The position numbers and the translations under genes were made by a program. DNA of 64,000 bases from Escherichia coli. Lineage in GTDB: Bacteria; Pseudomonadota; Gammaproteobacteria; Enterobacterales; Enterobacteriaceae. The notes under the pieces are model-generated. The model was not told where the DNA came from. It searched no databases and worked only from the letters and a program-made list of their open reading frames with translations. The stretch lies in NCBI GenBank assembly GCA_902499925.1, contig GCA_902499925.1_4130.1. One strand, 5' to 3'. Positions 1-17,251 of the stretch are shown here, piece by piece. Numbering within the stretch: position 1 is the stretch's first letter; each line of letters opens with the position of its first letter.

Positions 1-104
1 TAGCTACTTCCCGCATCAGTTCATCAAAGTTAGCCATTTTATTACTCCTTTTAGTGGGGGAGGATATCTCCCCCTATGCAAAACATTATACGCTTTATTC
101 AGTA

Positions 105-3765: not shown

Positions 3766-3788
3766 TTTTATTTCTCTCTTTTAGTTAG

Positions 3789-3807: not shown

Positions 3808-3821
3808 ACTTGATGTAAACT

Positions 3822-3850
3822 ATTATACAGTACTAAGATACTTTGTCAAT
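3822..3850 (-). promoter_or_regulatory. sigma70-like early promoter (TTGACA-16/17-TATAAT)
   Basis: Reverse complement reads TTGACAaagtatcttagtactgTATAAT. Confidence 0.6.
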
Positions 3851-3852
3851 AC

Positions 3853-4035
3853 TTATTTTTTGGAAAGTTTACGCATTAATTCTACGCTTTCTTGTGAACG
3901 TTTTGCTACCTGGCAAGCTGCATGGACAGTAAACATTTTTGTATAGTCTGACGCTTTGCCACCGAACCGAGCGGCACGTTCACGGGCACTTGGAACTAAT
4001 ACTATTTCTTTCTTGCAGATAGTGCACTTAGCCAT
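3853..4035 (-). CDS. small CxxC protein (60 aa)
   Basis: Trimmed to Met16 (MAKCTICKKE); RBS GAGAGAAATAAAA; hairpin upstream. Confidence 0.5.
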   Translation of the reverse strand: MAKCTICKKEIVLVPSARERAARFGGKASDYTKMFTVHAACQVAKRSQESVELMRKLSKK

Positions 4036-4123
4036 TTTTATTTCTCTCTCTTTGTTAGGAGGGGAACCGTTTCCCCTCACTCGATGTAAACTATTATACA
4101 GTACTAAGATACTTTGTCAATAC

Positions 4124-4399
4124 TTAATTATTGTAAATGTCGTGAATAGTGATAAAGTTTTTACGACCGTAAACCTGCAAATCAATATCAATGTAGTGCT
4201 TATCTAGTACATCCTCGACGCTTAACGCGGTGTCGTGGATATCTTCGTAGAATTGAGGATCTACAATCTTGCTTAAGTCATCCGGCGTTAACTTATCGTT
4301 AAGCCATTGAACCGCCTGGATATCTGCTTCACGTTTCCAGTCTTCCAGGTTAGTAGTCAGTACTTGTTCGATTTCGTTAGCTGTCAGTAGAATCCGCAT
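4124..4399 (-). CDS. hypothetical acidic protein (91 aa)
   Basis: Minus ORF; RBS AAGGAAACATAAAA. Confidence 0.6.
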   Translation of the reverse strand: MRILLTANEIEQVLTTNLEDWKREADIQAVQWLNDKLTPDDLSKIVDPQFYEDIHDTALSVEDVLDKHYIDIDLQVYGRKNFITIHDIYNN

Positions 4400-4665
4400 T
4401 TTTATGTTTCCTTATCAGTGGTTGATGTAAGTATTATACTCTTTTACTTTCTATTGTCAAACTATTTTATCAGGGGAGGTTTTCTTATGTCTTACTCCTG
4501 GACTACTTAACGGGGTTACTTGTTTCGTTCCCCGTCCTGATGTAAAACATTATACTTGATTCTAAGTACAATGCAAGTACTTTTTTAAAAATAGTTTTCA
4601 GTACTAGCCACCAGCATATAATAGATACATTTATGCACCCTGTGGGCTGATTTGTTTCTATGCGT

Positions 4666-4705
4666 ATATAATAGCAAAGGGACTGACCGGAGTCAATCCC
4701 TTTTT
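4666..4705 (-). promoter_or_regulatory. terminator-promoter cassette (early-region variant)
   Basis: Same element as 1398-1437. Confidence 0.5.
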
Positions 4706-4714
4706 CAATTATTT

Positions 4715-4864
4715 TTAAACTTCTTTCGGGTTGCGATAGGTGATAGCGTTCGGGTACATTTGTTTAATGTTATTCCATGCCTGGTTAACATTGTAACCAC
4801 TTGAGCGAATCAGTTGGTTACTACCGACACCTTGAAACACTACTTCGAATAAGAATTCTTTCAT
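4715..4864 (-). CDS. hypothetical small protein (49 aa)
   Basis: Untracked ORF MKEFLFEVVFQGVGSNQ...; ATG overlaps TGA of 4861..5034 (ATGA); followed by terminator cassette 4666-4705. Confidence 0.35.
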   Translation of the reverse strand: MKEFLFEVVFQGVGSNQLIRSSGYNVNQAWNNIKQMYPNAITYRNPKEV

Positions 4865-5034
4865 GCTTTCACCTCGCGATCTGCTTTACCTTTACGCCAG
4901 GACATTACTAATTGTTCGCGTTGCCATAAGTCGAGTGATACAAAAAGTTTTGCGGTATCACTTTTAGGATACTCGCCATTAGTACCTAACCGATAAAACA
5001 GATCTTTCAGTACTGATAATTCTACTTGGATCAT
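4861..5034 (-). CDS. hypothetical protein (57 aa)
   Basis: Track ORF 4861..5136 trimmed to Met35 (MIQVELS) with RBS AGAGGAAAG; hairpin upstream. Confidence 0.5.
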   Translation of the reverse strand: MIQVELSVLKDLFYRLGTNGEYPKSDTAKLFVSLDLWQREQLVMSWRKGKADREVKA

Positions 5035-5120
5035 TATACTTTCCTCTTTGTTGGGAGGGGAACTATTCCCCTCTCGATATAAAACATTATACACTTTATT
5101 CAGTACTGTGCAAGTACTTT

Positions 5121-5333
5121 TTAATCTTTCAGCCAATGATCCTGAATGAATTTTTCGCCGGAACCTTGCTGCATAGATTGTAACAGACGTTCACGATGAG
5201 CGGCGGCGAATTGCTCAGTACTATGCGTTACACCTGGTTGATATCTGGATTCACCATTGGGGGCGATGTATTGTACATCCCACGGTTTTTCGTTAGTATC
5301 AGACCATTTACGAACGATTAGTTGACCTTGCAT
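5121..5333 (-). CDS. hypothetical protein (70 aa)
   Basis: Minus ORF; RBS AGAGGAAAGAAAA; hairpin GGGGAGAATCATTTCTCCCC upstream. Confidence 0.6.
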   Translation of the reverse strand: MQGQLIVRKWSDTNEKPWDVQYIAPNGESRYQPGVTHSTEQFAAAHRERLLQSMQQGSGEKFIQDHWLKD

Positions 5334-5416
5334 TTTTCTTTCCTCTTAGTGGGGAGAATCATTTCTCCCCTTCATGTAAACTATTATACAGTACTAGATT
5401 ATCTTGTCAATAGTTT

Positions 5417-5740
5417 TTATTCACCTTGTTTGAATTTAGTTTTCTCCATTGATTCCATGATTGCAACCAATACACCGTGGATCTCGCTTAACGCGGAATC
5501 ACTAAAAGCATTAATGAATAGTCGATCATTCTCGCGAATATTTTTAATGTACTTTTCAGCAGTAGTTGCGAATTCATTCAACGGTAGATCAAATGCTTTA
5601 TCCCATGATGGATGGCGTAATTGTAACAGTACTGGATTATCACGATCACCAGGGGAAAACGTACCAGTGATGAAACATACGCCCGGAATACTTTCGAACT
5701 GGCAACGGACTTCCTTTGTGATAGTAGTATGAATGTACAT
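5417..5740 (-). CDS. hypothetical protein (107 aa)
   Basis: Minus ORF; RBS AGAGGATAACAATAA. Confidence 0.6.
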   Translation of the reverse strand: MYIHTTITKEVRCQFESIPGVCFITGTFSPGDRDNPVLLQLRHPSWDKAFDLPLNEFATTAEKYIKNIRENDRLFINAFSDSALSEIHGVLVAIMESMEKTKFKQGE

Positions 5741-5767
5741 TTATTGTTATCCTCTATTAAATTAATA

Positions 5768-5956
5768 TTACAGTTTATGAATCAATTCTTTATCTAAGCG
5801 ATAGCGTACATTATTAATGGTAACAGCATTATTTTTAATGCTACGCTGTACAGGTCCACCAGCAATAACAAATGTTGCTTTATTACCCCGAACAATGATA
5901 GCACTTCCAGGATTACCGAAATCATCTTGTACTAAAATACTTGATAAGTTTTCCAT
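5768..5956 (-). CDS. hypothetical protein (62 aa)
   Basis: Minus ORF; RBS AGAGGAAATAAAA; hairpin upstream. Confidence 0.55.
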   Translation of the reverse strand: MENLSSILVQDDFGNPGSAIIVRGNKATFVIAGGPVQRSIKNNAVTINNVRYRLDKELIHKL

Positions 5957-6034
5957 TTTTATTTCCTCTTAGTAGGGGAAGATGTTTCCCCTTGATGTAA
6001 GTACTATAACAGTACTGAAAACTAAATGCAAGTA

Positions 6035-6391
6035 CTATGATAAAATCATGATAGGATATTCACTATCGATCAGTACCTCGAATCCGAAACCTTCGTACCA
6101 TTCTTTAAGATTAAAGGCGTTATCTTCTCCCGTATCGCATTCTAAGATGATACAATCTGAATCATCAGCGGCATCGATAAAGGCATTCATTAATTCGTTA
6201 CCTTCACCATTGCCCCGACTATCAGGATCAACATAAAGAGAATCAATAAACGCTACACGGTCATAATCAAGATCCGGTGCAATGATTCCACGTTTAACAA
6301 ACCAGTACTGCAATTGTGCTACTTTGCCCTGTACTTGATAGCCAGTGATCTCGCCATTGTCAGTAGTACGCGTGATATGTTGTATTCCCAT
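6035..6391 (-). CDS. GNAT-like N-acetyltransferase (118 aa), tentative
   Basis: Motif VDPDSRGNGEGNELMNAF resembles the GNAT acetyl-CoA-binding motif A; RBS GAGGATAG; TATAAT box upstream. Confidence 0.5.
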   Translation of the reverse strand: MGIQHITRTTDNGEITGYQVQGKVAQLQYWFVKRGIIAPDLDYDRVAFIDSLYVDPDSRGNGEGNELMNAFIDAADDSDCIILECDTGEDNAFNLKEWYEGFGFEVLIDSEYPIMILS

Positions 6392-6455
6392 GATTACTAT
6401 CCTCAGTTAAGATATAAAACATTATACACTATCTTTCAGTACTGTCAATTACTTT

Positions 6456-6713
6456 TTATCTCATAGATCTATGCCAACAATTACGCGGGGGACGTTTAAA
6501 AGTACTATCATGATCCTCCTGGCAAGTAATGCAGTACATGCACCCTATAACGGCCTGGCGTCGATTCTCAGGGATTTTATCGCCGCAGTCGAGGCAATGT
6601 ACTAGTGATTCTCTTTGTGCGTTAATTTGCTTTCTAGCGTGGTTGACGGCGGCCTGAATCACTGCGTTGATCTCGTCTTGTTCGGCCCCGTCTTTCGCGT
6701 ATCCTACTGCCAT
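6456..6713 (-). CDS. TraR/DksA-family C4 zinc-finger protein (85 aa)
   Basis: C-x2-C...C-x2-C arrangement (CLDCGDKIPENRRQAV...CITCQ) typical of TraR/DksA zinc fingers; RBS GAGGTTAAAATA. Confidence 0.6.
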   Translation of the reverse strand: MAVGYAKDGAEQDEINAVIQAAVNHARKQINAQRESLVHCLDCGDKIPENRRQAVIGCMYCITCQEDHDSTFKRPPRNCWHRSMR

Positions 6714-7042
6714 TATTTTAACCTCATTATAAAAATACTATAGTACTGTAATGCTACAATAATACTACTAGTGTTTATCTTATTCAAACCATATGATACT
6801 ACATATCCATCAGCATTACCACGGATAGTAACGCCTTTGTACTGTCTATATAAATTCAACTGCGTATATTGCCTTTGATCAAGAATTGATCAGAATTATA
6901 CGCCTTATGCTAAATTAATCCAGTACTTTTTTGATCATTTATTGATCGATATTATATAGTTACATTTGTGCACCCTATGGGTTAGTGACGTTCTCGTCTT
7001 GATGTAAGTATTATGCCAGTACTGGAGGATATTGTCAATAGA

Positions 7043-7246
7043 TTATTTTAATTTTTTTCTGTCATTGATTAATGCTTTCAGTACTATACTAATAACTTGC
7101 AATGATTCATCAATGACAATGAAATTATTCTCTTTCATTAGATGATAGTTACCATTGATTGTATATTCTAACGAGTACTGTTTACGTTTAATTTTTGATA
7201 ATGTTTCTATTTGTTTTTGTACTGATTTCATGCTAATCATTGTCAA
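7043..7246 (-). CDS. hypothetical protein (67 aa)
   Basis: Minus ORF; weak RBS; follows terminator-like hairpin 7314-7339. Confidence 0.4.
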   Translation of the reverse strand: MTMISMKSVQKQIETLSKIKRKQYSLEYTINGNYHLMKENNFIVIDESLQVISIVLKALINDRKKLK

Positions 7247-7345
7247 ACGTCCTGTAACGCATTCTAACGAGATAAACGGTTTAGTACTGGCATTGTATAG
7301 GGTAAATGATTAAAGCCCACCAGCGTTAACCAGTGGGCTATAATC

Positions 7346-7489
7346 TTACATCTTGCGGATAATCTTAACAGTATCTTTCACCGATTTACCGTTTTGCTGA
7401 CATTGCTCGATCATCGCGTATTGTTCTGCGGTCAGATCCTCGCCAGTTTTTGCCAGTACTGCGTCGATGAATGAATCCAGTGCGATCAT
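7346..7489 (-). CDS. hypothetical small protein (47 aa)
   Basis: Untracked ORF MIALDSFIDAVLAKTGEDL...; RBS AGAGAGAAACAAA. Confidence 0.35.
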   Translation of the reverse strand: MIALDSFIDAVLAKTGEDLTAEQYAMIEQCQQNGKSVKDTVKIIRKM

Positions 7490-7588
7490 TTTGTTTCTCT
7501 CTTAGGTTAAGTTAACTACTGTTTATAAAACTTATTATACAGTACTATCAAACGTTGTCAATATCTTTAATAGTACTGGTAATATATT

Positions 7589-7768
7589 TTAGCGGTAATC
7601 GTCGTATGCTTTATTCACCTGGCGAATGTAACTTTCAAAGGCTTCGTCTACCGTTTCATACTCCCGAACATAATCACCATAGGAAACTACATACATACCT
7701 TTTTGATCTTCAAACGTCATGATGATAGAATCCAGGCCGATGATTTCAGTTTTTGCGATGATAGCCAT
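7589..7768 (-). CDS. hypothetical protein (59 aa)
   Basis: Trimmed to Met22; RBS AAGGAATTAAAA. Confidence 0.5.
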   Translation of the reverse strand: MAIIAKTEIIGLDSIIMTFEDQKGMYVVSYGDYVREYETVDEAFESYIRQVNKAYDDYR

Positions 7769-7850
7769 TTTTAATTCCTTAGTAGTGTAGTTGATAAAAG
7801 TTATTATGCCAGTACTATCAATCAGTGTCAATAGTACTGTGATAATATTT

Positions 7851-8063
7851 TTAGTTAATGATAGTCAGTGTAAAATTGTAATCCCCTGCCTGGTATAGTA
7901 CTTTGTCGCCGAACGTTCCAACACGTTTCATATTGCAATAGATACCCATAACACTTTTTACATCTTTGATATTCCGAACGCCAGTAATATCCTTGTTTAA
8001 ATGATCGTGATCAGAAAATAAAACTTGTTTTGCATTTTTCAGTACAGTGCAGATATTAGCCAT
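7851..8063 (-). CDS. hypothetical protein (70 aa)
   Basis: Minus ORF; hairpin 8084-8103 and promoter upstream. Confidence 0.55.
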   Translation of the reverse strand: MANICTVLKNAKQVLFSDHDHLNKDITGVRNIKDVKSVMGIYCNMKRVGTFGDKVLYQAGDYNFTLTIIN

Positions 8064-8083
8064 TTTGTTTTCTCTCTGTTAGT

Positions 8084-8103
8084 GGGGAGAATCATTTCTC
8101 CCC
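8084..8103 (-). promoter_or_regulatory. 5'-UTR stem-loop (family member)
   Basis: Perfect 8-bp inverted repeat GGGGAGAA-tcat-TTCTCCCC. Confidence 0.5.
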
Positions 8104-8157
8104 TTGATGTAAACTATTATACAGTACTATAATCTATTGTCAAACTATTTTTTTATA

Positions 8158-8499
8158 TTATTCGAAATCTTCTGGACCGGACTGATAATCATCTTCACCG
8201 TATGCACTTTCTAACCGCTCACCAGTGTGATCATCAGTTAGTGAGTCATCCTCATAGTTCACGTCTACGCCAGTGATGTAAAACTGGCTATCGTCTGGAT
8301 CATTGAAATTAATTTTTTGGATGTTTACAATAACTGTATTGATACCCAGGACACCGCCATCAGCCGTTACAAAGTACTGATAGTTTTCGCAACCGCCTGA
8401 ATTGAAACCGTAATTAATTTCGGCCCGACCATCATTTAAACGCAGTGCCTGGGCGATGATTTCATTTTCAAAGTTAGATTGAGCAATTGAGATAGTCAT
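8158..8499 (-). CDS. hypothetical acidic protein (113 aa)
   Basis: Minus ORF; RBS AAGGAAACAAATC; hairpin upstream. Confidence 0.6.
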   Translation of the reverse strand: MTISIAQSNFENEIIAQALRLNDGRAEINYGFNSGGCENYQYFVTADGGVLGINTVIVNIQKINFNDPDDSQFYITGVDVNYEDDSLTDDHTGERLESAYGEDDYQSGPEDFE

Positions 8500-8681
8500 G
8501 ATTTGTTTCCTTATTACCAGGGGAAACCGTTTCCCCTTTCGATGTAAAACATTATACGCTTATTGAGATAGTTTGCAAGTACTTTCTACAAATACTTTTA
8601 AAATAGTTTTCAGTACTCAAACATTATATAATAGATACACTTATGCACCCTGTGGGCTAGTGAGCTATCTCTCAATGAATA

Positions 8682-8720
8682 TATAATAGCAAAATGGCTG
8701 ACCGGAGTCAACCACTTTTT
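8682..8720 (-). promoter_or_regulatory. terminator-promoter cassette (early-region variant)
   Basis: TGGTTGAC-tccg-GTCAGCCA then TATTAT. Confidence 0.5.
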
Positions 8721-8864
8721 TCATTTATTTTTAGCTTTTAGAATCGCCGCCTTTCGCGTCATGCCTTGCTTGATGTATTCCTGTACTTTCGCTTTACGTG
8801 CATTCGCTTTATTTGCTTTCGTAAACGCCGAACAACTTTTATAATTTAAGCCTGTTGGATTCAT
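8721..8864 (-). CDS. hypothetical small basic protein (47 aa)
   Basis: Untracked ORF MNPTGLNYKSCSAFTKANKANARKAK...; last gene of a three-gene coupled unit, followed by terminator cassette. Confidence 0.35.
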   Translation of the reverse strand: MNPTGLNYKSCSAFTKANKANARKAKVQEYIKQGMTRKAAILKAKNK

Positions 8865-8954
8865 TTAAATCACCATAAAGAATAGATAGGTTACTAACAA
8901 TGCCGCGATCAATGCACCGACCAGGGCCGAACTATAGTAAGCTAATGATTTCAT
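8865..8954 (-). CDS. hypothetical hydrophobic peptide (29 aa)
   Basis: Untracked ORF MKSLAYYSSALVGALIAALLVTYLFFMVI; ATG overlaps stop of 8951..9103. Confidence 0.3.
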   Translation of the reverse strand: MKSLAYYSSALVGALIAALLVTYLFFMVI

Positions 8955-9103
8955 TTTTTAGCCTGAAAGTAATGTTTAATTTGAGCGGCGGTCAGTGCAC
9001 AATTACGCAGGAAGTTTTCTGTATAACTGCGGCGAGTACTGAAAGAGAATTGACCTTTGCCGTTACCGATAGTAACATCAAACCGAGCGTTGTATTGTTT
9101 CAT
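8951..9103 (-). CDS. hypothetical protein (50 aa)
   Basis: Trimmed to Met11; RBS AGGAGAAACAAA; hairpin upstream. Confidence 0.45.
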   Translation of the reverse strand: MKQYNARFDVTIGNGKGQFSFSTRRSYTENFLRNCALTAAQIKHYFQAKK

Positions 9104-9181
9104 TTTGTTTCTCCTGTTATTGGGGAGAATCATTTCTCCCCTTCATGTAAAACATTATACAGTACTAAAAACTAATTGCAA

Positions 9182-9331
9182 GTACTATTTTTTAGATTTA
9201 CGCAAACTTTCTACCATCTCAGGAGTAAGGCCAGGCGGGTAGAAAACCACTTCATCAACGAAACGTAAAGGGAATACCCCATCTAAGGTTGAACGTGCTT
9301 TCTTGTTAGTACTCTTTTTTGATGCTTTCAT
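9182..9331 (-). CDS. hypothetical small basic protein (49 aa)
   Basis: Untracked ORF MKASKKSTNKKARSTLDG...; RBS AAGGAATATGAA; hairpin upstream. Confidence 0.4.
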
Positions 9332-9400
9332 TTCATATTCCTTAATTAGTGGGGAGAATCATTTCTCCCCTTCATGTAAAACATTATACGCGTTTAAAAA

Positions 9401-9610
9401 CTAATTGCAAGTACTATTTGAAAGTAAATGCTCATACGCTGCATTAACTACGTTTTCAATAACCGACTGTACAGAAAGATCCCCCACGGCCTGGCTATAG
9501 TAGAAATCGCTTACAGTGGTGTCATCGTATGCAAATACTTTACCAGGTACTGCATCAATCACATACATATTAACCTTTAAGATGTCGATCTTATCCTGTA
9601 CAGTAAGCAT
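9401..9610 (-). CDS. hypothetical protein (69 aa)
   Basis: Minus ORF; RBS AAAGGTTAATTAAT. Confidence 0.5.
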   Translation of the reverse strand: MLTVQDKIDILKVNMYVIDAVPGKVFAYDDTTVSDFYYSQAVGDLSVQSVIENVVNAAYEHLLSNSTCN

Positions 9611-9615
9611 ATTAA

Positions 9616-9888
9616 TTAACCTTTTAAGTACTGGCTTAAGTAGTCTTGTTGATCTTCGGTGATTGCAGCCATCTTCCCTAGTACTGGATTGATGATATAA
9701 TCCCCTGTAACGTCCTGTAACGCATTCTCAGGCGGTTTAACGGCTGGGGTAGCCATAGCCATTGCCTGGACTTGTTCGACGCTGTAACGCTCATAAAGGC
9801 GGCATTCTTCCGGTGTTAACATAGCATCAGTACGCTTCATCGGTTTAATGATGCTTTCGATCTCATTCAGTACTTGATTAACGTTCAT
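9616..9888 (-). CDS. hypothetical protein (90 aa)
   Basis: Minus ORF; RBS GGGGATTATACC. Confidence 0.55.
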   Translation of the reverse strand: MNVNQVLNEIESIIKPMKRTDAMLTPEECRLYERYSVEQVQAMAMATPAVKPPENALQDVTGDYIINPVLGKMAAITEDQQDYLSQYLKG

Positions 9889-9939
9889 GGTATAATCCCC
9901 AATATAAGCGGCCTGAATCGACCGCTAACGATGTTTTGA

Positions 9940-10209
9940 TTAATAGGTGTATGGTTGACGCTCAAACAATGATTGCACGTTGTACGCCCCGCTTATGGGC
10001 TTCGCTGGTAAATCAATTTTATATTGTTCACGCTTAAAGATAATAAAACGGCAATTGTTTTTAACATCAAAATTGATTGAACGTTCCAGGAGTTTTCCAT
10101 CGTGCACAAATACAAGATAACCGCTTGCTACTTGTTTTGTAGTACTGGTTGCAACCATAGACCGACGAACATGTGTACCTGCATCGATTAAAGTACTGAT
10201 ATTTTTCAT
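9940..10209 (-). CDS. hypothetical protein (89 aa)
   Basis: Minus ORF; RBS AAGAGGATCGTATA. Confidence 0.6.
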   Translation of the reverse strand: MKNISTLIDAGTHVRRSMVATSTTKQVASGYLVFVHDGKLLERSINFDVKNNCRFIIFKREQYKIDLPAKPISGAYNVQSLFERQPYTY

Positions 10210-10289
10210 TATACGATCCTCTTAAGTTAATTTAATTTCTTTCCCCTATGCAGACACTATATCAAAGTATCTGCATAAAGTAAAGCTAA

Positions 10290-10613
10290 TTAAAGATCTT
10301 TTTTGCGTTTAACATTCTGTACAGTACAATGCAACGGGATATTAAGATCATTGCACAAACGAGTAAGGGAGGTTTCATCAGTATTAAGCCCGTCTACTGA
10401 TTCCTTTAAGAGAGATAACGCCGTTTGTTGATATGCATCTTCATAGCCATAAGTAAATGATTCAACCGCCAGATCATTCAAACCGTTATCCAGTTCAACG
10501 CTTACATGACAAGAATGATAAGTATTGCCATATGAATCAGTCCAACGTTTACCGTCAACATTGATTGCACGGATTGCAGCCAGGGAAACGGTGTTAATGA
10601 TAGTTTTAGCCAT
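10290..10613 (-). CDS. hypothetical protein (107 aa); paralog of 3442..3765
   Basis: Minus ORF; RBS AAGGAATACAAAA; shared RWTDS(Y/H)GNTYHSC motif. Confidence 0.6.
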   Translation of the reverse strand: MAKTIINTVSLAAIRAINVDGKRWTDSYGNTYHSCHVSVELDNGLNDLAVESFTYGYEDAYQQTALSLLKESVDGLNTDETSLTRLCNDLNIPLHCTVQNVKRKKDL

Positions 10614-10702
10614 TTTTGTATTCCTTAAATTAATATGTTGTCTTGATAAAATCTATTATGCCAGTACTATCAAACTATGTCAATAGTACTGTGATAATAT
10701 TT

Positions 10703-10846
10703 TTACTTACTTTTTTCTTTCTTTATTACTTCCACCTGGTCGGCCCATTCTTTACCCCATACTTGTAAATTATAATGGTACTGGCAAAGAGCAACGCCCC
10801 GCTTTAAACCCGTAATAGATTTCTGACCACATTGACAAGTTTTCAT
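10703..10846 (-). CDS. hypothetical small Cys-containing protein (47 aa)
   Basis: Untracked ORF MKTCQCGQKSITGLKRGVALCQYH...; RBS AAGGAAACTAAA; hairpin upstream. Confidence 0.4.
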   Translation of the reverse strand: MKTCQCGQKSITGLKRGVALCQYHYNLQVWGKEWADQVEVIKKEKSK

Positions 10847-10932
10847 TTTAGTTTCCTTGTAGTGGGGAGAACCATTTCTCCCCTTGATGTAATGTATTAT
10901 ACTTTATTCGATTTACTTTGCAAGTACTTTTT

Positions 10933-11160
10933 TTAATTTAATTCATCAAGGCAAAGGATACGCTCAACGCCCAAATCAGTTAAACTAATCGACGGCACTT
11001 GATAGGTTTCAATGTATGCTACACTTGCCCACTGACCGAACTCATTAACGGCCCAGGTATTCATTGCATTTTGCAATTCCGCACCTTCCTTGTTGGTAAT
11101 GACTGCAACTACTTGTTCGTTGCCAGTAGTACCAGATACGCGAGTAATGATAATAGCCAT
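10933..11160 (-). CDS. hypothetical protein (75 aa)
   Basis: Trimmed to Met20; RBS AAAGGAATCAAAACA; promoter TTGCAC-16-TATAAT upstream. Confidence 0.55.
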   Translation of the reverse strand: MAIIITRVSGTTGNEQVVAVITNKEGAELQNAMNTWAVNEFGQWASVAYIETYQVPSISLTDLGVERILCLDELN

Positions 11161-11396
11161 TGTTTTGATTCCTTTGATTTGGAAGGAGAACCGTTTCCCC
11201 CTCTCGATGTAAAACATTATACGCTAATCTCTTAATCGTGCAAGTACTTTTTATTACTTTTTGCAAAATACTTTAAACGCTCTCAATCGCATTACAACGA
11301 CCTTAACGCCACCAGCTAGGGCAATTGCATCAGATAATCAGTTTAATGCGTTAGAATCGTTTCTAGGCGGTGCTGGTGGCCTGGTAAACGATAAAC

Positions 11397-11425
11397 ACAA
11401 AAAAGCCCACCATTTAAGGTGGGCT
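11397..11425 (-). terminator. intrinsic terminator
   Basis: Hairpin AGCCCACC-ttaaatg-GTGGGCT followed by U6 on minus-strand RNA, 3' of 11447..11929. Confidence 0.6.
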
Positions 11426-11446
11426 AGTGATTCAGTACTTTAATTG

Positions 11447-11929
11447 TTATGCTTCAACTTTGCGATGAGCTTCGATCCATTCCTCGCGAGTCATACCGCT
11501 GGAGTTAATCGCATCCAGTACTACAGCAATGCAGTTACCACGCACCGGAATCAGATATTCTTCCCCGTTGTCCAGTACTACCGCTACGCGTTCCTGAATC
11601 CATTTTTTTGCTTTTACTTCTGGCTTATCTTCCCCGTACTTAACCGCCAGGGCTTTTTGTGCCATCTCTGTAACTACTTCCAGATCCAGCCCAACTACTG
11701 CCGCCTGAATACTTTCAATTGTTGCTTGCAGTTCTGCTTCACGGGCCGCTTTCGCCGCTTCAATTTCTGCCGCTTTATTTGCTTGTAGTTCTTTCGCAGT
11801 ACTGTACGCGATGTTAAAATTATTGCGTACCGCTTTCATGGTATCGTTGTCCAGTTCAGCCAGGATCTCAGCCGCGACGTTAGTTTCATTTGCTACCAGT
11901 GCTTTGATGAATGATTTTACATTAGCCAT
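11447..11929 (-). CDS. Ala-rich protein, predicted coiled coil (160 aa)
   Basis: Trimmed to Met6; RBS GAGGATTTATAAA; promoter TTGACA-16-TAGAAT upstream. Confidence 0.6.
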   Translation of the reverse strand: MANVKSFIKALVANETNVAAEILAELDNDTMKAVRNNFNIAYSTAKELQANKAAEIEAAKAAREAELQATIESIQAAVVGLDLEVVTEMAQKALAVKYGEDKPEVKAKKWIQERVAVVLDNGEEYLIPVRGNCIAVVLDAINSSGMTREEWIEAHRKVEA

Positions 11930-12131
11930 TTTATAAATCCTCAATTAAAGTTTAGTTTACGTTTATTAGTGTATCAAAGTTTTCTCGACGTGTCCAGTTT
12001 TTCGTTCGACTTACTGGCGGTCTACTTAGTGCTCCCCGTCTTGATGTAATACATTCTACGCCTTTTTGCGGTAATGTCAACTACTTTTTTTAAAACTATT
12101 TTCAAAGTATCTCAGTACTACGATACTATAA

Positions 12132-12161
12132 AAACAAAAAAGCCCACTGTATAAGTGGGCT
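12132..12161 (-). terminator. intrinsic terminator
   Basis: Hairpin AGCCCACT-tataca-GTGGGCT followed by U-run on minus RNA, 3' of 12179..12478. Confidence 0.6.
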
Positions 12162-12178
12162 AGTGATTCAGTACTAGA

Positions 12179-12478
12179 TTATAAACAGTTAATTACTCCG
12201 GTGTGCGTTACTTTCTCAGTATCCATTACAGTGACCGAACCGCGTTTAGTACTTGCATCGTAATAAATTGTCGTGCTACCTTTTTCGTCTTCTTCATGGA
12301 ACGGGCCGCTTTTAAATGCTTCTGGCTGGATCTCTAAATCCTTTAAAACAATCTCGCCAGTACTTTCATTGGTCATCGCTACAGTGCACTGAATGAATTT
12401 TTCATTACTTACATCTAACGACGCATTAACAGCGAAAGAGGAAACAGATAAAGCCAGGGCGATGATTGCAATTTTCAT
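12179..12478 (-). CDS. secreted protein with N-terminal signal peptide (99 aa)
   Basis: N-terminus MKIAIIALALSVSSFAVNA is signal-peptide-like; RBS AAGGATAATCAA. Confidence 0.6.
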   Translation of the reverse strand: MKIAIIALALSVSSFAVNASLDVSNEKFIQCTVAMTNESTGEIVLKDLEIQPEAFKSGPFHEEDEKGSTTIYYDASTKRGSVTVMDTEKVTHTGVINCL

Positions 12479-12562
12479 TTGATTATCCTTAGTTACCAGG
12501 GGGAACCGCTCCCCCTTGCGATGTAAAATATTATACAGTTCTAAAAACTATTATCAAGTACT

Positions 12563-12799
12563 TTATGATTTTTTATAAAACATTTCAGCAGTGATATTTT
12601 TACCCGTTGGCTGTACTTTATCCAGGATTTTTTGATGTCCAGGCCGACCAAATGAATATGATCCGTAAACCGTAAACCAGTAGTTACCCTCAGTGTTTAC
12701 ATGTACAGCACAATAAGGAACACCACGCGATTCATCACTAGTAAAGTGTGATACCGTTCCCGTTACATTCGCAGACGTTGATTTGATTTGTTCGAGCAT
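12563..12799 (-). CDS. hypothetical protein (78 aa)
   Basis: Minus ORF; RBS AAGGAATAAGAAA; hairpin upstream. Confidence 0.55.
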   Translation of the reverse strand: MLEQIKSTSANVTGTVSHFTSDESRGVPYCAVHVNTEGNYWFTVYGSYSFGRPGHQKILDKVQPTGKNITAEMFYKKS

Positions 12800-12906
12800 T
12801 TTCTTATTCCTTAGTTACCAGGGGAACCACTCCCCTATGCAAAACATTATACGCGTTTAAAAACTAATTGCAAGTATTTTAATAAAAAGTATTTGAAAAA
12901 TAGTTG

Positions 12907-12935
12907 TTGACAAGTGCATCCAGTACTGGCATAAT
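12907..12935 (+). promoter_or_regulatory. plus-strand (antisense-oriented) sigma70-like promoter
   Basis: TTGACA-17-CATAAT read on the plus strand; CCCACCGGGTGC box about 30 nt downstream; no plus-strand ORF follows. Confidence 0.4.
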
Positions 12936-13003
12936 TACTACATAAAGACAAAACAGTCTCTAACCCACCGGGTGCCGAGATCCGTCTATTAAATGATTCA
13001 GTA

Positions 13004-13036
13004 CTGAAAAAGTAACGGGGAGTTATTATCTCCCCG
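13004..13036 (-). terminator. intrinsic terminator
   Basis: Hairpin CGGGGAGATAATAACTCCCCG then UUACUUUUUC on minus RNA, 3' of 13042..13263. Confidence 0.55.
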
Positions 13037-13041
13037 CGTTG

Positions 13042-13263
13042 TTATTTGGTAAGGTATAAACAGAAGTCACCTTTATTTGCTACGCCGCCAGTGTAACGCG
13101 ATGAATAGTTAGAAACGTCCTGGACTTCTGCTATTACCAGTGTATCATCATTCATTTCGTCGCAGAAGCAAACGGCTGGATCTTGTACGCCGATTTTGTC
13201 GGCATGTTCCCGCATAGATTTAACCAGTGCTTCCAGTTGGGAAAGAGTAGTGATATTAGCCAT
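13042..13263 (-). CDS. hypothetical protein (73 aa)
   Basis: Trimmed to Met11; RBS GAGGAAAATAAA; hairpin upstream. Confidence 0.55.
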   Translation of the reverse strand: MANITTLSQLEALVKSMREHADKIGVQDPAVCFCDEMNDDTLVIAEVQDVSNYSSRYTGGVANKGDFCLYLTK

Positions 13264-13349
13264 TTTATTTTCCTCATTACCAGGGAGAACCATTTCTCCC
13301 TTTGATGTAAACCATTATACAGTACTGAAAACTAATTGCAAGTACTTTT

Positions 13350-13553
13350 TTAATTTAATTGCTTTAAAACATACTCAAAGACACCACGCACATCATTGAT
13401 CATCGCCTGGCGGTTAGCAGGTAACGCATCAGGATCGCCACTATCCCAGGCATTGATAAAACTCCCCAAATCATGATAGATTTTATTCTGTAAGCCGATT
13501 AACTGCAATTCTTTTTCTTCAAGCTCTTTGATACGTTCAATTAAATCACTCAT
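13350..13553 (-). CDS. hypothetical protein (67 aa)
   Basis: Trimmed to Met13; RBS GAGGATTATCTA, identical context to 13571..13855. Confidence 0.5.
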   Translation of the reverse strand: MSDLIERIKELEEKELQLIGLQNKIYHDLGSFINAWDSGDPDALPANRQAMINDVRGVFEYVLKQLN

Positions 13554-13570
13554 TAGATAATCCTCAGTAC

Positions 13571-13855
13571 TTAACTGTAAGATCCGCAACGGTCGCAGTA
13601 GTGCCCGTCCTCGTCATCGTCAACGAATTGACCGACGAAATGATCTACTTTCGCTTTCAGGTTATTATAATCGTTTTCTACTTCCGTTAAACGCTTCTGG
13701 TAGTATTCCAGTGCTTTAAGATATGCCGCATCAGCAGTTTTCTCCTGCATAGCTAAATTCATGCCACGCGTTTCATCGTACAGCCAAAAACCATCGGTGC
13801 ACTCACTGATTGACAATGATTTACTTAACACATTGTACTTTATTACTTTACTCAT
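13571..13855 (-). CDS. hypothetical protein with C-terminal CxxC (94 aa)
   Basis: Trimmed to Met14; RBS GAGGATTATCTA; C-terminus HYCDRCGSYS; hairpin upstream. Confidence 0.55.
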   Translation of the reverse strand: MSKVIKYNVLSKSLSISECTDGFWLYDETRGMNLAMQEKTADAAYLKALEYYQKRLTEVENDYNNLKAKVDHFVGQFVDDDEDGHYCDRCGSYS

Positions 13856-13911
13856 TAGATAATCCTCAGTAAAGGCGGGAACCATTCCCGCCATTGATTC
13901 AGTACTGAATG

Positions 13912-14151
13912 TTACATTCCAACCATTGCGGCACGGATCGCAGTAGTGCTATACTTGAATCCGTCCGGCGTTGTAGTAGTACCGTTGGCTTTTAATCTGC
14001 GGTACATACATTGGGCCGCAATATCTTTAGTTTTACATTGTGCGATGCAACTTTGAGCAAGCCGATATAATGACTCACCGTTATTAATCCACAATGAAAC
14101 ATTCCAATGAGTTTTGTTTTTGTGCCCGTTGTAAGTTTTAGTACTAGCCAT
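13912..14151 (-). CDS. hypothetical protein (79 aa); paralog of 15951..16190
   Basis: Trimmed to Met11; RBS GAGGATTTAAAA; shares GHKNKTHWNVSLWINN...PDGFKYSTTAIRAAMVGM. Confidence 0.55.
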   Translation of the reverse strand: MASTKTYNGHKNKTHWNVSLWINNGESLYRLAQSCIAQCKTKDIAAQCMYRRLKANGTTTTPDGFKYSTTAIRAAMVGM

Positions 14152-14241
14152 TTTTAAATCCTCGTTTGAGCGGGGAACCATTCCCCGCCTCGATATAAAG
14201 TATTATACGCTTTTAAACTTAGTTTGCAAGTACTTTTTGAA

Positions 14242-14853
14242 TTAATATTCGATTGATTCTACTACGCCATCAATAACATTGAATTGATATTCGTTACCCT
14301 CAATCAGTGCCGTAATGTTTTCAGTACTGAATTGATCCTCATATGCATTCTCTAAATCACGGTACAACTTGCGGGATAATTCACGAATAGTTTCAGTGAG
14401 TAGTTCCTCAAGCTCATTAACTAACGTTTCTTGTTTTGCGGTTAAATCAGTGTAAGCCGATTCAATGTACCCGCTTACAGTGTTTTCGTGTGAGTAGCGA
14501 GATTGAGAACGCTTTACACTCATCGCCAAATCATCTTCATTCAGCAGGTGACGGATTGAGCGATACTTAGTTAATGCTCTTACCTTGCGTAAAAACTTCA
14601 CTGCGTCAACGTGGTCAGTACTGATTGATGCACCGTCACCCTGGGACCAAAAACCACTGAATTGTATTTCAGCGTCATTAATGCCATATTCCGGTAATAC
14701 TGTTTCTTTATAGTATTCGATCACTGACTCAGAAAAGAAATCATCCCCGCTTGAACGTTCACGTTCCCGAACCAGTTCGATAGCTGACGTTTTTTGTTCT
14801 GCGTTCAATTCAGAAAAATCCATAACATAAGTAGTAGTAGTGATAGTTTTCAT
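14242..14853 (-). CDS. hypothetical acidic protein (203 aa)
   Basis: Minus ORF; RBS GAGGGTTACAAA; tandem promoters with structured leader upstream. Confidence 0.6.
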   Translation of the reverse strand: MKTITTTTYVMDFSELNAEQKTSAIELVRERERSSGDDFFSESVIEYYKETVLPEYGINDAEIQFSGFWSQGDGASISTDHVDAVKFLRKVRALTKYRSIRHLLNEDDLAMSVKRSQSRYSHENTVSGYIESAYTDLTAKQETLVNELEELLTETIRELSRKLYRDLENAYEDQFSTENITALIEGNEYQFNVIDGVVESIEY

Positions 14854-15078
14854 TTTGTAACCCTCATTCAGTAGTTGATGTAAGTATTATACGCTTTTAA
14901 AAACATTTGTCAAACTATTTTATCAGGGGAGTTTTTCGTGTGCCTTACTCCTGGGCTACTTAACGGGGAGTTACTTATTTCGTTCCCCGTCCTGATGTAA
15001 AACATTATACGCCTTTAAACATAGTTTGCAAGTACTTTTTAAAAATAGTTTTCAGTACTGAATATTAAAAAAAAAGTA

Positions 15079-15107
15079 TTGACAGCATTATCAAGTACTG
15101 GTATAAT
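15079..15107 (+). promoter_or_regulatory. plus-strand (antisense-oriented) sigma70-like promoter
   Basis: TTGACA-17-TATAAT on plus strand; CCCACCGGGTGC box downstream. Confidence 0.4.
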
Positions 15108-15281
15108 ATATCCCATGACAACAGCTAACCCACCGGGTGCACAATTGTAACTATACTAAACTAATTTTTCTATAGATACACTCCCGCACCCTATGGGCTA
15201 CGGCTTATCTGCCAATGAATACATTATGCCAGTACTGACAAAATAAGTCAATACCGGCAATTGTAAAGATTTGTAAACTGC

Positions 15282-15512
15282 TTATACTGCAATCGCGTCC
15301 AGGCTATAATAATAATAAGTGCCGTATTGGTGTACTTTATTACCTTTTATTTCAGTACTGAATGAATCCGAACGATTGGCATATGATGTTAATTTAAAGT
15401 ACTTTGATTTGCTGATACGTTGCCATACACCGCAGATCCGCTGTAAGTAAGTAGTTTTATTAGTGGTAGTATCTTTTACGGTTTTAACTTCAGTCATATA
15501 CATATTGGTCAT
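15282..15512 (-). CDS. hypothetical protein (76 aa)
   Basis: Minus ORF; RBS AAGGAGTAAAAAAA; hairpin 15535-15553 upstream. Confidence 0.55.
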   Translation of the reverse strand: MTNMYMTEVKTVKDTTTNKTTYLQRICGVWQRISKSKYFKLTSYANRSDSFSTEIKGNKVHQYGTYYYYSLDAIAV

Positions 15513-15601
15513 TTTTTTTTACTCCTTGCTTTAGTGGGGAACTATTCCCCACCTGATATAAAGTATTATACGCTTTTAAACTTAGTTTGCAAGTACTTTT
15601 T

Positions 15602-15865
15602 TTATAGTACTGCTATCTTTTTAGTACGGTACACGGTAACACGATTCCCCTTACGGTCGAGCTTTATTTCTACCACTCGACGCGATACACTAGCAGGACT
15701 TTTCAACGCCGCTAACCAGTACTGTAATGATCTGGCGGTACTACGCTTTACAATGGCCCAACGTTTACCACTTTCCGATTGTACGCCCATATCTTTAAAC
15801 GTTGCCCCGTCCTGGCGTGCGGCGATCCGAGCTTGTTCACGCGTCGCAAAATACTTAATATTCAT
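15602..15865 (-). CDS. hypothetical protein (87 aa); paralog of 2951..3346
   Basis: Trimmed to Met13 (MNIKYFATRE). Confidence 0.55.
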   Translation of the reverse strand: MNIKYFATREQARIAARQDGATFKDMGVQSESGKRWAIVKRSTARSLQYWLAALKSPASVSRRVVEIKLDRKGNRVTVYRTKKIAVL

Positions 15866-15950
15866 GCTGTTGCCCTTATCGTTGGTGTATGAATAAAACA
15901 CTATTATAAAGTACTATCGCAAAAAATGATAGTACTTTAAATAAATTCTA

Positions 15951-16190
15951 TTACATTCCAACCATCGCCGCACGGATCGCAGTAGTGCTATATTTGAATC
16001 CGTCCGGTGTTTTATCTTGTCCAGTCTGTTCTAAAAATAACATCATATGACGGGCCGCATCATTGCGATTAGTGCTATCGTTAATAAAGTCCTGGGCCAA
16101 CCGGTATAATGATTCATCGTTATTAATCCAAAGGCTTACATTCCAATGAGTTTTGTTTTTGTGACCTAAGAACATTTTTGATTTAGCCAT
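15951..16190 (-). CDS. hypothetical protein (79 aa); paralog of 13912..14151
   Basis: Minus ORF; RBS AAGAGGATTAAAAA; hairpin upstream. Confidence 0.55.
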   Translation of the reverse strand: MAKSKMFLGHKNKTHWNVSLWINNDESLYRLAQDFINDSTNRNDAARHMMLFLEQTGQDKTPDGFKYSTTAIRAAMVGM

Positions 16191-16282
16191 TTTTTAATCC
16201 TCTTATATAGTGGGGAACTATTCCCCACCTGATGTAAAACATTATACGCTTTTAAACTTAGTTTGCAAGTACTTTATTAAAC

Positions 16283-16645
16283 TTATTTGTAAATTTTGCC
16301 ACTGTCAGCCCATACCAGGAAACGATGCATATTATCCCATGCATCTTGTTTTAAATTTAAACCGTGCAATTCCTCAGTAGTTGCCATCCCTGGTACTGGC
16401 TTACTACACACCGCGAAATTTTCTCCCATGTACTGATAAACCATCGTTAAATCATTTGAGATCATTACATGGATCATTGAATCAAGCATCAAAGTAGCGG
16501 CGTATTGTTCACGCTTAAGCGGCAACATTGCAATAAGTTCCCGATAAGCTGCAATGTGAATTTTTACAGTTTCAGCCGGAAGACCTTTCATCTCTTCACG
16601 GAAGTTAACCAGGTTAAGCATGATTTTATTGATTTGAGTCGCCAT
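16283..16645 (-). CDS. hypothetical protein (120 aa)
   Basis: Trimmed to Met20; RBS AAGAGAGATTAAAACG; hairpin AGCGGGAA-gtg-TTCCCGCT upstream. Confidence 0.6.
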   Translation of the reverse strand: MATQINKIMLNLVNFREEMKGLPAETVKIHIAAYRELIAMLPLKREQYAATLMLDSMIHVMISNDLTMVYQYMGENFAVCSKPVPGMATTEELHGLNLKQDAWDNMHRFLVWADSGKIYK

Positions 16646-17008
16646 CGTTTTAATCTCTCTTAATGTGTAGCGGGAAGTGTTCCCGCTCTCGATGTAAAAC
16701 ATTATACGCTTTTATCAGTACGGTGCAAGTACTTTCTACAAATACTTTTAAAATAGTTTTCTTTCTATATAGGGGAACTATTATTCAGTACTGCAACCAT
16801 CCAGGGGAACTATCTTTCTATATAGTAGTACTATCATTCAGTACTGAATCAATCCACCAAATCATCCCGATACCCCGTAAAACGGCCTCAGACGCATTCT
16901 AACGCATTAATACACCTAAGCTATACATTTGCACCATTCCAATCATTCCAGGGCTTTACTGGCCGTTTAAACGCGTTAAATTATTTTCAATTATTTTGTT
17001 TTTAGCTA

Positions 17009-17036
17009 TTGACTCAGTACTAAAAAAGCGTATAAT
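17009..17036 (+). promoter_or_regulatory. plus-strand sigma70-like promoter
   Basis: TTGACT-16-TATAAT on plus strand inside the non-coding island. Confidence 0.4.
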
Positions 17037-17223
17037 TACTACATAGACGCGAGAAAGCGGATACCCCAGGGGGTGGGAAGATCCGTCCAAAATTCATAAA
17101 ATTTAAAAAGGATACACTCCCGCACCCTAGCAGGTCAAAGCACTTTCTCAGTACTGAAATATAGTACCATAGTCCGGCCCAGGATAGCAAGCAAATTAAT
17201 TAAAACTTTTTGCTTCCAGGGTA

Positions 17224-17251
17224 TTGCTTTATTTTTCCAGTACTGTATAAT
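17224..17251 (+). promoter_or_regulatory. plus-strand promoter-like box
   Basis: TTGCTT-16-TATAAT on plus strand; CCCACCGGGTGC box downstream. Confidence 0.35.

Follow-up and report, generated by a model that had tools for sequence, protein, structure and literature searches.

Why should a region annotated with minus-strand genes only carry strong promoters on the plus strand? The question is raised by positions 12907 to 17251 of a stretch of 64,000 nucleotides (nt), the contig GCA_902499925.1_4130.1 of the Escherichia coli assembly GCA_902499925.1, which we analysed at its full length and call the window. An initial annotation had reported four sigma70-type promoters there, each followed by a shared sequence box, and had proposed that they give short antisense or non-coding transcripts. 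Judging from its similarity to known phages, the window comes from an Asteriusvirus-like jumbo coliphage: positions 12500-17500 match Escherichia phage ph0011 with 94% identity, as they do some 35 further jumbo coliphages of Asteriusvirus (PBECO4, 121Q, phAPEC6 and G17 among them). The answer that we favour, with moderate confidence, is that the plus-strand sites would be early sigma70 promoters of a multi-copy cassette made of a promoter and a leader RNA, whose RNA module would be recognised by a common partner.

A family of promoter and leader cassettes in the terminal repeat

We found promoter-like sites at all four positions (12907, 15079, 17009 and 17224). Three of them are near consensus, as reported: 12907-12935 (TTGACA-17-CATAAT, with an extended -10 TG) matches the sigma70 consensus at 11 of 12 positions, 15079-15107 (TTGACA-17-TATAAT, also with the TG) at 12 of 12, and 17009-17036 (TTGACT-16-TATAAT) at 11 of 12. 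The fourth, 17224-17251 (TTGCTT-16-TATAAT), had also been described as good, but its -35 element is poor (three of six matches) and it was not listed by our promoter scan. This weak element reads TTGCTTTA at 17224-17232, which resembles a T4 MotA box (TGCTTtA) placed 14 base pairs (bp) from the -10 and not at about 12. A fifth plus-strand promoter, overlooked by the initial annotation, lies at 17349-17377 (TTGACA-17-GATAAT, 11 of 12). In agreement with the initial annotation, no credible plus-strand open reading frame (ORF) follows any of these sites, and relatives annotate only minus-strand genes here.

Such matches could arise by chance in AT-rich intergenic DNA. The genome has 36% G+C, and loose promoter matches are indeed common (44 for 34 expected). 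Yet the plus strand carries four sites with at least 11 of 12 matches between 10 and 20 kb, when 0.18 ± 0.44 are expected (300 dinucleotide shuffles, maximum 2). The orthologue of the 12907 site in RaK2 and Muenster reads TTGACA-17-TATAAT with a different spacer, i.e. these Klebsiella phages retain the hexamers and their distance of 17 bp. By their excess over chance, and by hexamers and spacing that are kept while the spacer changes, the sites show the behaviour of genuine sigma70 promoters. They are also conserved across genera together with the module that lies downstream. As far as sequence analysis goes, these two observations refute an origin by chance, to which we give a negligible probability.

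The shared box was found as described. The sequence CCCACCGGGTGC occurs exactly at 12964, 15129 and 17280, and a variant, CCCCAGGGGGTGGG, at 17064. The distance from the end of the -10 element, reported as about 30 nt, measures 28, 21, 27 and 28 nt for the sites at 12907, 15079, 17009 and 17224, respectively. What had to be given up is the idea of a plus-strand peculiarity, because the combination of promoter and box is equally common on the gene strand. With up to two mismatches, the box has eight matches in the window for 0.82 expected (none of 100 shuffles reaches eight). Five of the eight are on the minus strand (1372, 4646, 6981, 8656 and 15197), each with its own -10 element 21-28 nt upstream and TTGAC(A/T) 17 bp further up, following the pattern TTGAC(A/T)-17-(T/C)AT(T/A)AT. 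The feature is therefore not specific to the plus strand. A search with a profile of the family retrieved 10 copies from the two strands of the window. They are restricted to 1340-17313, and the other 46 kb contain no copy. A dozen further near-consensus minus-strand promoters lie outside this range, at 43-64 kb.

The elements of the cassette follow a fixed order: promoter, conserved start region ((T)ACTACAT or ATTCAT), a hairpin that we call P1, a linker of 3-5 nt, and the box R-CCC-AYN-GGG-U-GC, which itself forms a hairpin, P2. P1 has a stem of 3-5 bp and a purine-rich loop of 4-8 nt, mostly 6-7 (AGAACAA, AGATAA, GAGAAA or GCGAAA), and the module of P1 and box sits at about +5 to +36 from the start. 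The promoter comes in two forms. The first is TTGACA-N7-CCAGTACTGG-CATAAT; in the second, the -35 lies in the 5' arm of the preceding terminator, the T-run of that terminator serves as the spacer, and the -10 is TATTAT. The box is followed by five mostly purine bases and by TGTATCTAT, replaced in several antisense copies by TCCGTCY or TACGCCC, and an AGTACTG motif stands some 20-30 nt after this downstream segment. The box is almost invariant, and its conservation exceeds that of the promoter hexamers.

We collected 70 copies of the cassette (46 after de-duplication) from the window and from loci of G17, RaK2, Muenster, 121Q, GAP32, CBB and other jumbo-phage contigs. All 70 have TTGAC(A/T)-16..18-(T/C)AT(A/T)AT upstream of the box, as the detection filter demanded a promoter. 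An exact-pattern scan of viral contigs for the box and TGTATCT returned contigs taken to be RaK2, 121Q, GAP32 and CBB as well as others, most of the latter jumbo-sized, and the cassette is also carried by jumbo phages of Klebsiella, Cronobacter and Pectobacterium. A scan of 596 Gb of bacterial genomes for the box pattern gave 27 scattered matches, about the chance level by our own estimate, with none listed in Escherichia, Klebsiella, Cronobacter or Pectobacterium. We rejected a host origin of the box on these grounds.

Where in the phage genome do the cassettes lie? Base 1 of phage vB_Ec-M-J, which has an annotated direct terminal repeat (DTR) of 21.5 kb, aligns to window position 18381 with 95% identity, and therefore positions 1-18381 of the window are within the DTR. 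The starts of the CRJP21 and fEgEco12 records, calculated from alignment coordinates, also fall near 18381. Since genome starts map to this position, the window spans the boundary of the terminal repeat or a concatemer junction. The cassette is confined to the DTR wherever a DTR is annotated: the 32 kb of vB_Ec-M-J that we examined contain 11 copies, all within its DTR, and every copy of Muenster is within the repeat predicted by PhageTerm. The genes of the DTR point away from the physical left end. Those that relatives annotate at 12500-17500 are all hypothetical and on the minus strand, and the last 1.7 kb of the DTR part (16.7-18.4 kb) has no annotated gene and many promoters on both strands. 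In CBB and Muenster, the equivalent repeat is a predicted early region with RpoD-type promoters and UP elements.

Cassettes are found in both orientations relative to the genes. The antisense orientation is best illustrated by cassette 1. Its plus-strand promoter (12907-12935, with CCAGTACTGG in the spacer) is back to back, at a distance of 33 bp, with the minus-strand gene-type early promoter (12846-12873, TTGCAA-16-TATAAT) that drives gene 12563-12799. The predicted RNA, of about 105 nt and with no ORF (plus strand, putative ends at 12942 and 13046), includes P1 (AGAC at 12946-12949, GTCT at 12956-12959), the box CCCACCGGGTGC (12964-12975), an AU-rich stretch with CAGTACTG (12999-13006) and a bidirectional terminator (13016-13036), and its fold has a minimum free energy of -27.9 kcal/mol (z = -2.8). 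The anatomy of a small-RNA gene (promoter, no ORF, intrinsic terminator) is thus complete for 12907. Non-coding DNA of RaK2, K64-1 and Muenster matches the transcribed part (12931-13035) with 74-75% identity, and the orthologue is again antisense between two genes there. Seven antisense copies, which come from at least three genera and lie where the repeat is dense in genes, have a GC-rich terminator that begins 48-52 nt downstream of the first base of the box; it is the bidirectional terminator of the convergent gene.

Sense copies lack a terminator, and their transcription would continue into the promoter that the following gene has of its own (AGTACTTGCAA-16-TATAAT), at a distance of about 110 bp. 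In the window they lie on the minus strand at 1340-1427 (-35 TTGACT in the 5' arm of the upstream terminator, -10 TATTAT, P1 TGAG/CTCA, box 1372-1361), at 4616-4696 (promoter embedded in a terminator, short leader without P1, box 4646-4635), at 6949-7038 (promoter 7038-7010 with the CCAGTACTGG spacer, P1 GACG/CGTC, box 6981-6970) and at 8623-8711 (terminator-embedded promoter, P1 TGAG/CTCA, box 8656-8645). Terminator-embedded promoters are found in the copies at 1427, 4696 and 8711 and in several Klebsiella-phage copies, and in none of the four plus-strand copies.

The other plus-strand copies differ from cassette 1 in their surroundings. Cassette 2 (15079-15140; promoter 15079-15107, a 21-nt leader without P1, box 15129-15140) faces no gene; it faces a convergent sister cassette on the minus strand (15165-15251; TTGACT-17-CATAAT at 15251-15223, P1 GGC/GCC, box CCCATAGGGTGC at 15197-15186). 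These two boxes, separated by 45 nt, are inverted copies of each other. In the predicted plus transcript 15114-15215, box pairs with anti-box (z = -4.9), and each partner RNA would carry its own box and the complement of the other's. Convergent pairs also occur in 121Q, Muenster and CBB. Cassette 3 (17009-17077; TTGACT-16-TATAAT at 17009-17036, P1 CGC/GCG at 17048-17059, variant box CCCCAGGGGGTGGG at 17064-17077) is faced by a weaker minus-strand cassette (17110-17159; box CCTGCTAGGGTGC at 17133-17121, P1 AGTAC/GTGCT, nhmmer E = 2e-4) with an orthologue in Muenster (contig L003, -30758). Cassette 4 (17224-17291; -35 TTGCTT, -10 TATAAT at 17246-17251, P1 AGTC/GACT at 17262-17275, box 17280-17291) is conserved in G17 and vB_Ec-M-J. 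The fifth plus-strand promoter (feature 17349-17450, z = -2.8; TTGACA-17-GATAAT) precedes a P1-like stem (AGATT/AATCT at 17384-17399), and a GGGGA..TCCCC hairpin of the gene-leader type replaces the box. The copies at 17009, 17224 and 17349 lie in the ORF-free 1.7 kb, 1.0-1.4 kb from the physical genome end near 18381, towards which they are directed through an array of 8-bp periodic repeats. This terminal segment is about 73% identical in Muenster, and strong inward promoters at 18016 and 18116 face its plus-strand copies.

Conservation at the level of RNA

We next consider whether the module is conserved as DNA or as RNA. A Watson-Crick stem ending 2-6 nt before the box is present in 32 of the 46 unique leaders, when 12.0 ± 2.9 are expected (300 shuffles, maximum 21), and the stems of P1 comprise about 20 different sequences. 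We aligned 33 cassettes, N-padded and registered by hand on their structure. The three inner pairs of P1 are paired in all 33, with 4-5 pair types each. The covariation score of P1 is 0.577, for 0.173 in column shuffles (none of 500 reaches the observed value), and sliding the P1 partner by 1-3 columns drops pairing to 18-50%. RNAalifold returned both P1 and P2 from this alignment; from a MAFFT alignment, which had put P1 out of register, it returned P2 alone.

P2 (R-CCC with GGG-U) is paired in all sequences, with an alternation of A-U and G.U at its base and one compensatory change from C-G to U-A (CCTACAAGG, in CBB). The GGGUG of the box can alternatively pair with a YRYCY segment 8 nt downstream, which excludes P2. 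This segment varies by transitions only, such that G-C/G.U or U-A/U.G pairs are kept (97.6% of the cells are paired). Transitions that preserve pairing in this way make sense only on the RNA strand predicted by the promoter. Hence, the variation is strand-specific and speaks for conservation at the level of RNA.

The closest known systems are the promoter-early stem-loop (PeSL) cassettes of T4-type phages, which combine a stem-loop terminator with an early sigma70 promoter (Arbiol 2010, PMC2839356; Comeau 2014, PMC4122927). In both cases a motif of terminator and sigma70 early promoter is repeated among small, variable early genes and is kept while the neighbours change; here, the genes are hypothetical and orthologous cassettes have unrelated neighbours. 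Sense cassettes are the most PeSL-like, as their -35 is inside a terminator stem. This opens the possibility that our cassettes are mobile terminator-promoter units conserved for recombination or shuffling, in which case the plus-strand copies would be inverted units and their transcripts functionless by-products. The terminator-promoter composites of the sense copies agree with this, as do the presence of both orientations, the flanking small function-unassigned genes, which differ between genomes, and the homology of cassette leaders with gene-promoter leaders, which extends up to CTAA (TATAAT, ACTTACATCAA, hairpin, CTAA). However, an element conserved only as DNA leaves unexplained the covariation of P1, the A-U/G.U alternation and compensatory change in P2, and the transitions restricted to one strand. 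It accounts neither for the constant distance to the terminator nor for a box that is more conserved than the promoter hexamers. We thus regard shuffling as an unlikely explanation of the conservation of the cassettes.

The cassette also differs from PeSLs by its conserved transcribed module of P1 and box with RNA covariation, by its occurrence in both orientations, and by its confinement to the terminal repeat. The promoters of the plus-strand copies are separate from any hairpin and so fall outside the PeSL definition, and RaK2-like phages are only distantly T4-like. From these comparisons, the cassette appears to be a PeSL-like early element with a conserved structured RNA, which would also serve as a stand-alone small-RNA gene, and which does not seem to have been described previously.

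Candidate functions of the cassette RNAs

The reading that we favour is the following. Host sigma70 RNA polymerase would fire the plus-strand cassette promoters early in infection, and each cassette RNA would begin with P1 followed by the box, either folded as P2 or paired with the segment 8 nt downstream. The cassette can be placed in either orientation between the terminator of one gene and the promoter of the next. In the antisense orientation (12907 and, less cleanly, 15079, 17009 and 17224), it would be a stand-alone non-coding RNA gene, and the product of 12907 would be about 100 nt long and end at the shared bidirectional terminator. In the sense orientation, the terminator hairpin would incorporate the promoter, and the RNA module would turn into a distal 5' leader. 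The module could be the recognition element of one partner (a host or phage protein, or RNA polymerase), presented in many copies at the start of infection. Since orientation and neighbours vary and the box does not, the module most likely acts via the RNA itself. Observed are the anatomy, the family, its conservation as RNA and its restriction to the terminal repeat; transcription, the ends of the RNAs, an action in trans and the partner are deduced.

Several observations weigh against this reading. Its anatomy is incomplete in part of the family: 13 of the 46 unique cassettes, including 15079, have a leader of 21-22 nt without P1, and among the four sites initially reported only 12907 has a clean terminator (17009 and 17224 have none, and 15079 meets its convergent partner). 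As the sense copies lack terminators, the term small RNA fits only some of the copies. An unconstrained search for a 3-bp hairpin anywhere in the leader gave no significant excess (38 of 46 for 34.4 in shuffles), a test that was too permissive and that we replaced by the position-constrained one. The register of the hand-made alignment was picked to maximise the pairing of P1, and the position-constrained shuffle test is therefore the more independent number. P2 is otherwise invariant, so that covariation barely tests its pairing. Pfam scans of 20 DTR proteins gave only domains of unknown function (DUF), a GNAT and a DksA/TraR zinc finger, and no partner. Finally, the literature yields no transcriptome for this group of phages, and the starts, ends and abundance of the RNAs are predictions.

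The initial annotation had the transcripts running into the 3' ends of minus-strand genes. That they are non-coding agrees with our analysis; that they reach the genes does not. The terminator at 13016-13036 sits just before the stop codon of the convergent gene, and the RNA of 12907, which would stop there, overlaps the terminator only and not the coding 3' end. Under a cis-antisense model, the cassette would regulate the convergent minus-strand gene, or its read-through, by duplex formation or by polymerase collision. This agrees with the convergent geometry at 12907, where the shared terminator gives an overlap of about 25-30 nt, with the full complementarity of the cassette RNA to read-through from gene 13042-13293, and with the complementary RNAs that the 15079/15251 pair would make. 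Yet the neighbours are not conserved with the cassette. The genes flanking the RaK2 orthologue of cassette 1 are unrelated to those flanking it in the window, which argues against gene-specific cis-antisense control. In addition, the overlap is limited to the gene's terminator, the conserved RNA is shared by the sense copies, which are the majority, and there is no gene opposite the copies at 17009, 17224 and 17349. An action by antisense pairing with the neighbouring gene is thus unlikely, and we judge cis-antisense regulation as a whole improbable. We also rejected a type I toxin-antitoxin system: the neighbouring proteins, judged by eye, have no evident resemblance between the two phages and do not seem hydrophobic, and the overlap consists of the terminator only.

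The position and shape of the module evoke cis-acting signals for antitermination, or more generally for the modification of RNA polymerase (of the lambda nut, HK022 put or RfaH ops type), that allow read-through of early terminators. The site where the polymerase is modified would be the RNA of hairpin and box, or else the non-template DNA strand folded into a CCC-AYN-GGG hairpin; antisense RNA from the antisense copies would then switch off the early genes. Like nut and put, the cassette has a promoter-proximal RNA with a short stem, a purine-rich loop (boxB-like in P1) and an adjoining linear element, in an early region rich in terminators, and its module comes right behind the promoter (about +5 to +36). 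Sense copies restart transcription exactly at terminators, some genes of the region have their own terminator, and the nine nucleotides CCCAYNGGG would fit a transcription bubble. The box also shares TAG-GTG with ops. Nevertheless, a strong terminator is retained behind antisense copies, always about 50 nt away, and a constitutive defeat of termination would make these conserved terminators pointless. A second, complete gene promoter follows every sense copy. There is no boxA (CGCTCTTA) in the alignment, the loops of P1 (4-8 nt) are not GNRA-like pentaloops, the copy number is much higher than that of nut, and the Pfam scan of 20 DTR proteins revealed no antiterminator, be it an N, Q or NusG-like protein. 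We rejected a lambda-type nut site for these reasons. We also rejected RfaH ops, since the box reads CCCAYNGGGTGC and does not match the ops consensus GGCGGTAGnnTG, which only its 3' half (TAG-GTG) resembles. Overall, antitermination seems rather unlikely, if somewhat less so than simple shuffling. Other, tentative resemblances, on which nothing here is based, are those of the box with PK1 of tmRNA, of one leader with 6S RNA, and of 17414-17445 with the type I-E CRISPR repeat.

The box can also be read as a translation decoy or minigene of the lambda bar type, where GGGUG would play the part of the Shine-Dalgarno sequence, 5 nt ahead of NTG, TAT CTA and a stop (M-Y-L), and would tie up ribosomes or the rare tRNA-Leu(CUA). 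ATG, GTG or TTG is correctly placed in 20 of the 33 aligned cassettes, many of which read ATG/GTG TAT CTA TAG, and the homologous gene leaders have CTAAGGA where the cassettes have CTAACCC. The remaining 13 have no start codon, three of the four copies initially reported lack one, and the copy with its box at 15129 reads TTG-TAA. The length of the ORF is not conserved (from 1 to more than 40 codons), GGGUG is sequestered in P2, and the variation fits RNA pairing better. We therefore find the minigene very improbable.

Early non-coding RNAs from terminal repeats, some antisense or intergenic, were found by RNA-seq in PA5oct (ncRNA001 and ncRNA002; PMC7318152) and in phage K (small non-coding RNAs; PMC9241854). 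They share with the cassettes a non-coding, early character and an origin in long terminal repeats. They are single loci revealed by RNA-seq, whereas the cassettes are a multi-copy family with a conserved core, known from comparative evidence only. The DTR of PA5oct, which holds these RNA-seq-supported RNAs, gave no cassette in a profile search. An ordinary small-RNA gene (sigma70 promoter, about 100 nt, intrinsic terminator) has the anatomy of cassette 1 (12907-13046), including the AU-rich stretch before the terminator, but not the roughly 10 paralogous copies per repeat, most of them terminator-less leaders, nor the lack of an Rfam family. Rfam had no match in the whole window at the gathering threshold, and only a spurious plant miRNA at 12800-18700 with E up to 5; ARAGORN found no tRNA or tmRNA. 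In the literature on RaK2-like phages we found no description of these cassettes.

Other motifs and genes of the terminal repeat, and implications

Other motifs are repeated near the cassettes and the genome end. The palindrome AGTACT occurs 275 times in the whole window, for about 22 expected, and CAGTACTG 62 times, for 0.9 expected (examples are at 12921-12928, 12999-13006, 17238-17245 and 17826-17859). Its density is 10 per kb in intergenic and 3.2 per kb in coding DNA. It is placed in promoter spacers beside the -10, abutting the -35 of gene promoters (AGTACTTGCAA), and after each cassette. AGTACT is enriched 16-21-fold in Muenster, GAP32, CBB and two other contigs, an enrichment that PA5oct does not show. 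The palindrome could serve a global regulator as its operator, or have a role in DNA structure or modification. In CBB, GAP32 and relatives (contigs L007 ~5400, L014 ~4470 and L006/L008), the cassette is followed by TACTGTACATAAAAACAGTA, which consists of two AGTACTG motifs; these repeats also make up the terminator stems of these phages. This sequence fits the LexA-box pattern, CTGT-N8-ACAG. Klebsiella-type phages have a palindrome, AATGAGAATCATTATCATTCTCATT, between convergent cassettes near the genome end (Muenster L003 ~29575-29625 and 30700-30740; L018 ~6095; L005 ~1290), which is absent from the E. coli phage window and matches the Fur-box consensus (GATAATGATAATCATTATC) at 16 of 19 positions.

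The E. coli Chi site, GCTGGTGG, occurs 12 times in the window, for 0.73 expected. Nine sites are in the terminal-repeat part (852, 2259, 4608, 5856, 7317, 11309, 11372, 17785 and 17797), seven of them on the minus strand, and the others are at 24824, 49753 and 60783. Two of them form a divergent pair at roughly 600 bp from the end of the genome. Spacers of cassette promoters contain some of the Chi sites of RaK2 and contig L018. This excess suggests a protection of the linear ends from RecBCD. The array of 8-bp repeats, in the ORF-free terminal region (17479-17630), contains about 14 tandem units with the consensus CRTCYAGC (e.g. TAGCCGTC / CAGCCATC) and could be a site of packaging, replication or DNA entry. 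Related CCGTCCA / ACGCCCAAAAT motifs are found at 17078, 17293, 17332, 17617 and 17643, some of which coincide with the box-downstream segment of plus-strand cassettes.

Among the minus-strand genes of the repeat, 13912-14181 and 15951-16190 are paralogues with DUF7249 (E = 2e-13 and 2e-11), and gene 5417-5740 carries DUF7247, which points to the duplication of gene cassettes inside the repeat. The product of gene 6456-6713 has a DksA/TraR-type zinc finger (Pfam E = 4e-9) and is likely to bind the secondary channel of RNA polymerase. The promoter of this gene is flanked by two pairs of TTGATCA-type inverted repeats at 6880-6955 (TTGATCAAGAATTGATCA and TTGATCATTTATTGATCGAT). Gene-type early promoters precede a conserved 5' leader (e.g. 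12800-12845, 1215-1272 and 8505-8550, on the minus strand) in the order TATAAT, GTTTTACATC, hairpin GGGGAGAAATGGTTCTCCCC, CTGGTAAC, TAAGGA, N6-8 and ATG. Because its hairpin contains an ATG, ORFs called mechanically acquire N-terminal extensions that are spurious (MVLPG..., MFYIERG...); translation truly starts at the second ATG.

RaK2-like jumbo phages (Asteriusvirus, Alcyoneusvirus, GAP32 and CBB) are candidates for therapy, and their early programme is essentially without annotation: the 20-kb terminal repeat encodes about 50 tiny genes with no assigned function. A structured RNA module present in about 10 copies per repeat, in at least four genera, while the surrounding genes turn over, offers a handle on how these phages take over the cell, and the cassettes yield concrete RNAs to probe. 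They extend the idea of PeSLs as mobile regulatory cassettes beyond T4-type phages and add an RNA component to it. Intergenic stretches that look empty deserve annotation as promoters, non-coding RNAs and leaders. More tentatively, as a possibility that we hold to be less than probable, the hairpin and CCCAYNGGGUGC may constitute a new recognition signal, present only in the repeat that enters the cell first, either as a signal akin to nut, put or ops that reprogrammes the host RNA polymerase on its departure from these promoters, or as a decoy RNA that titrates a host factor. If so, the decoy would be a multi-copy RNA that sequesters an RNA-binding or defence factor of the host within minutes of the onset of infection, and a single signal would be put to two uses, in the stand-alone antisense copies and in the leaders.

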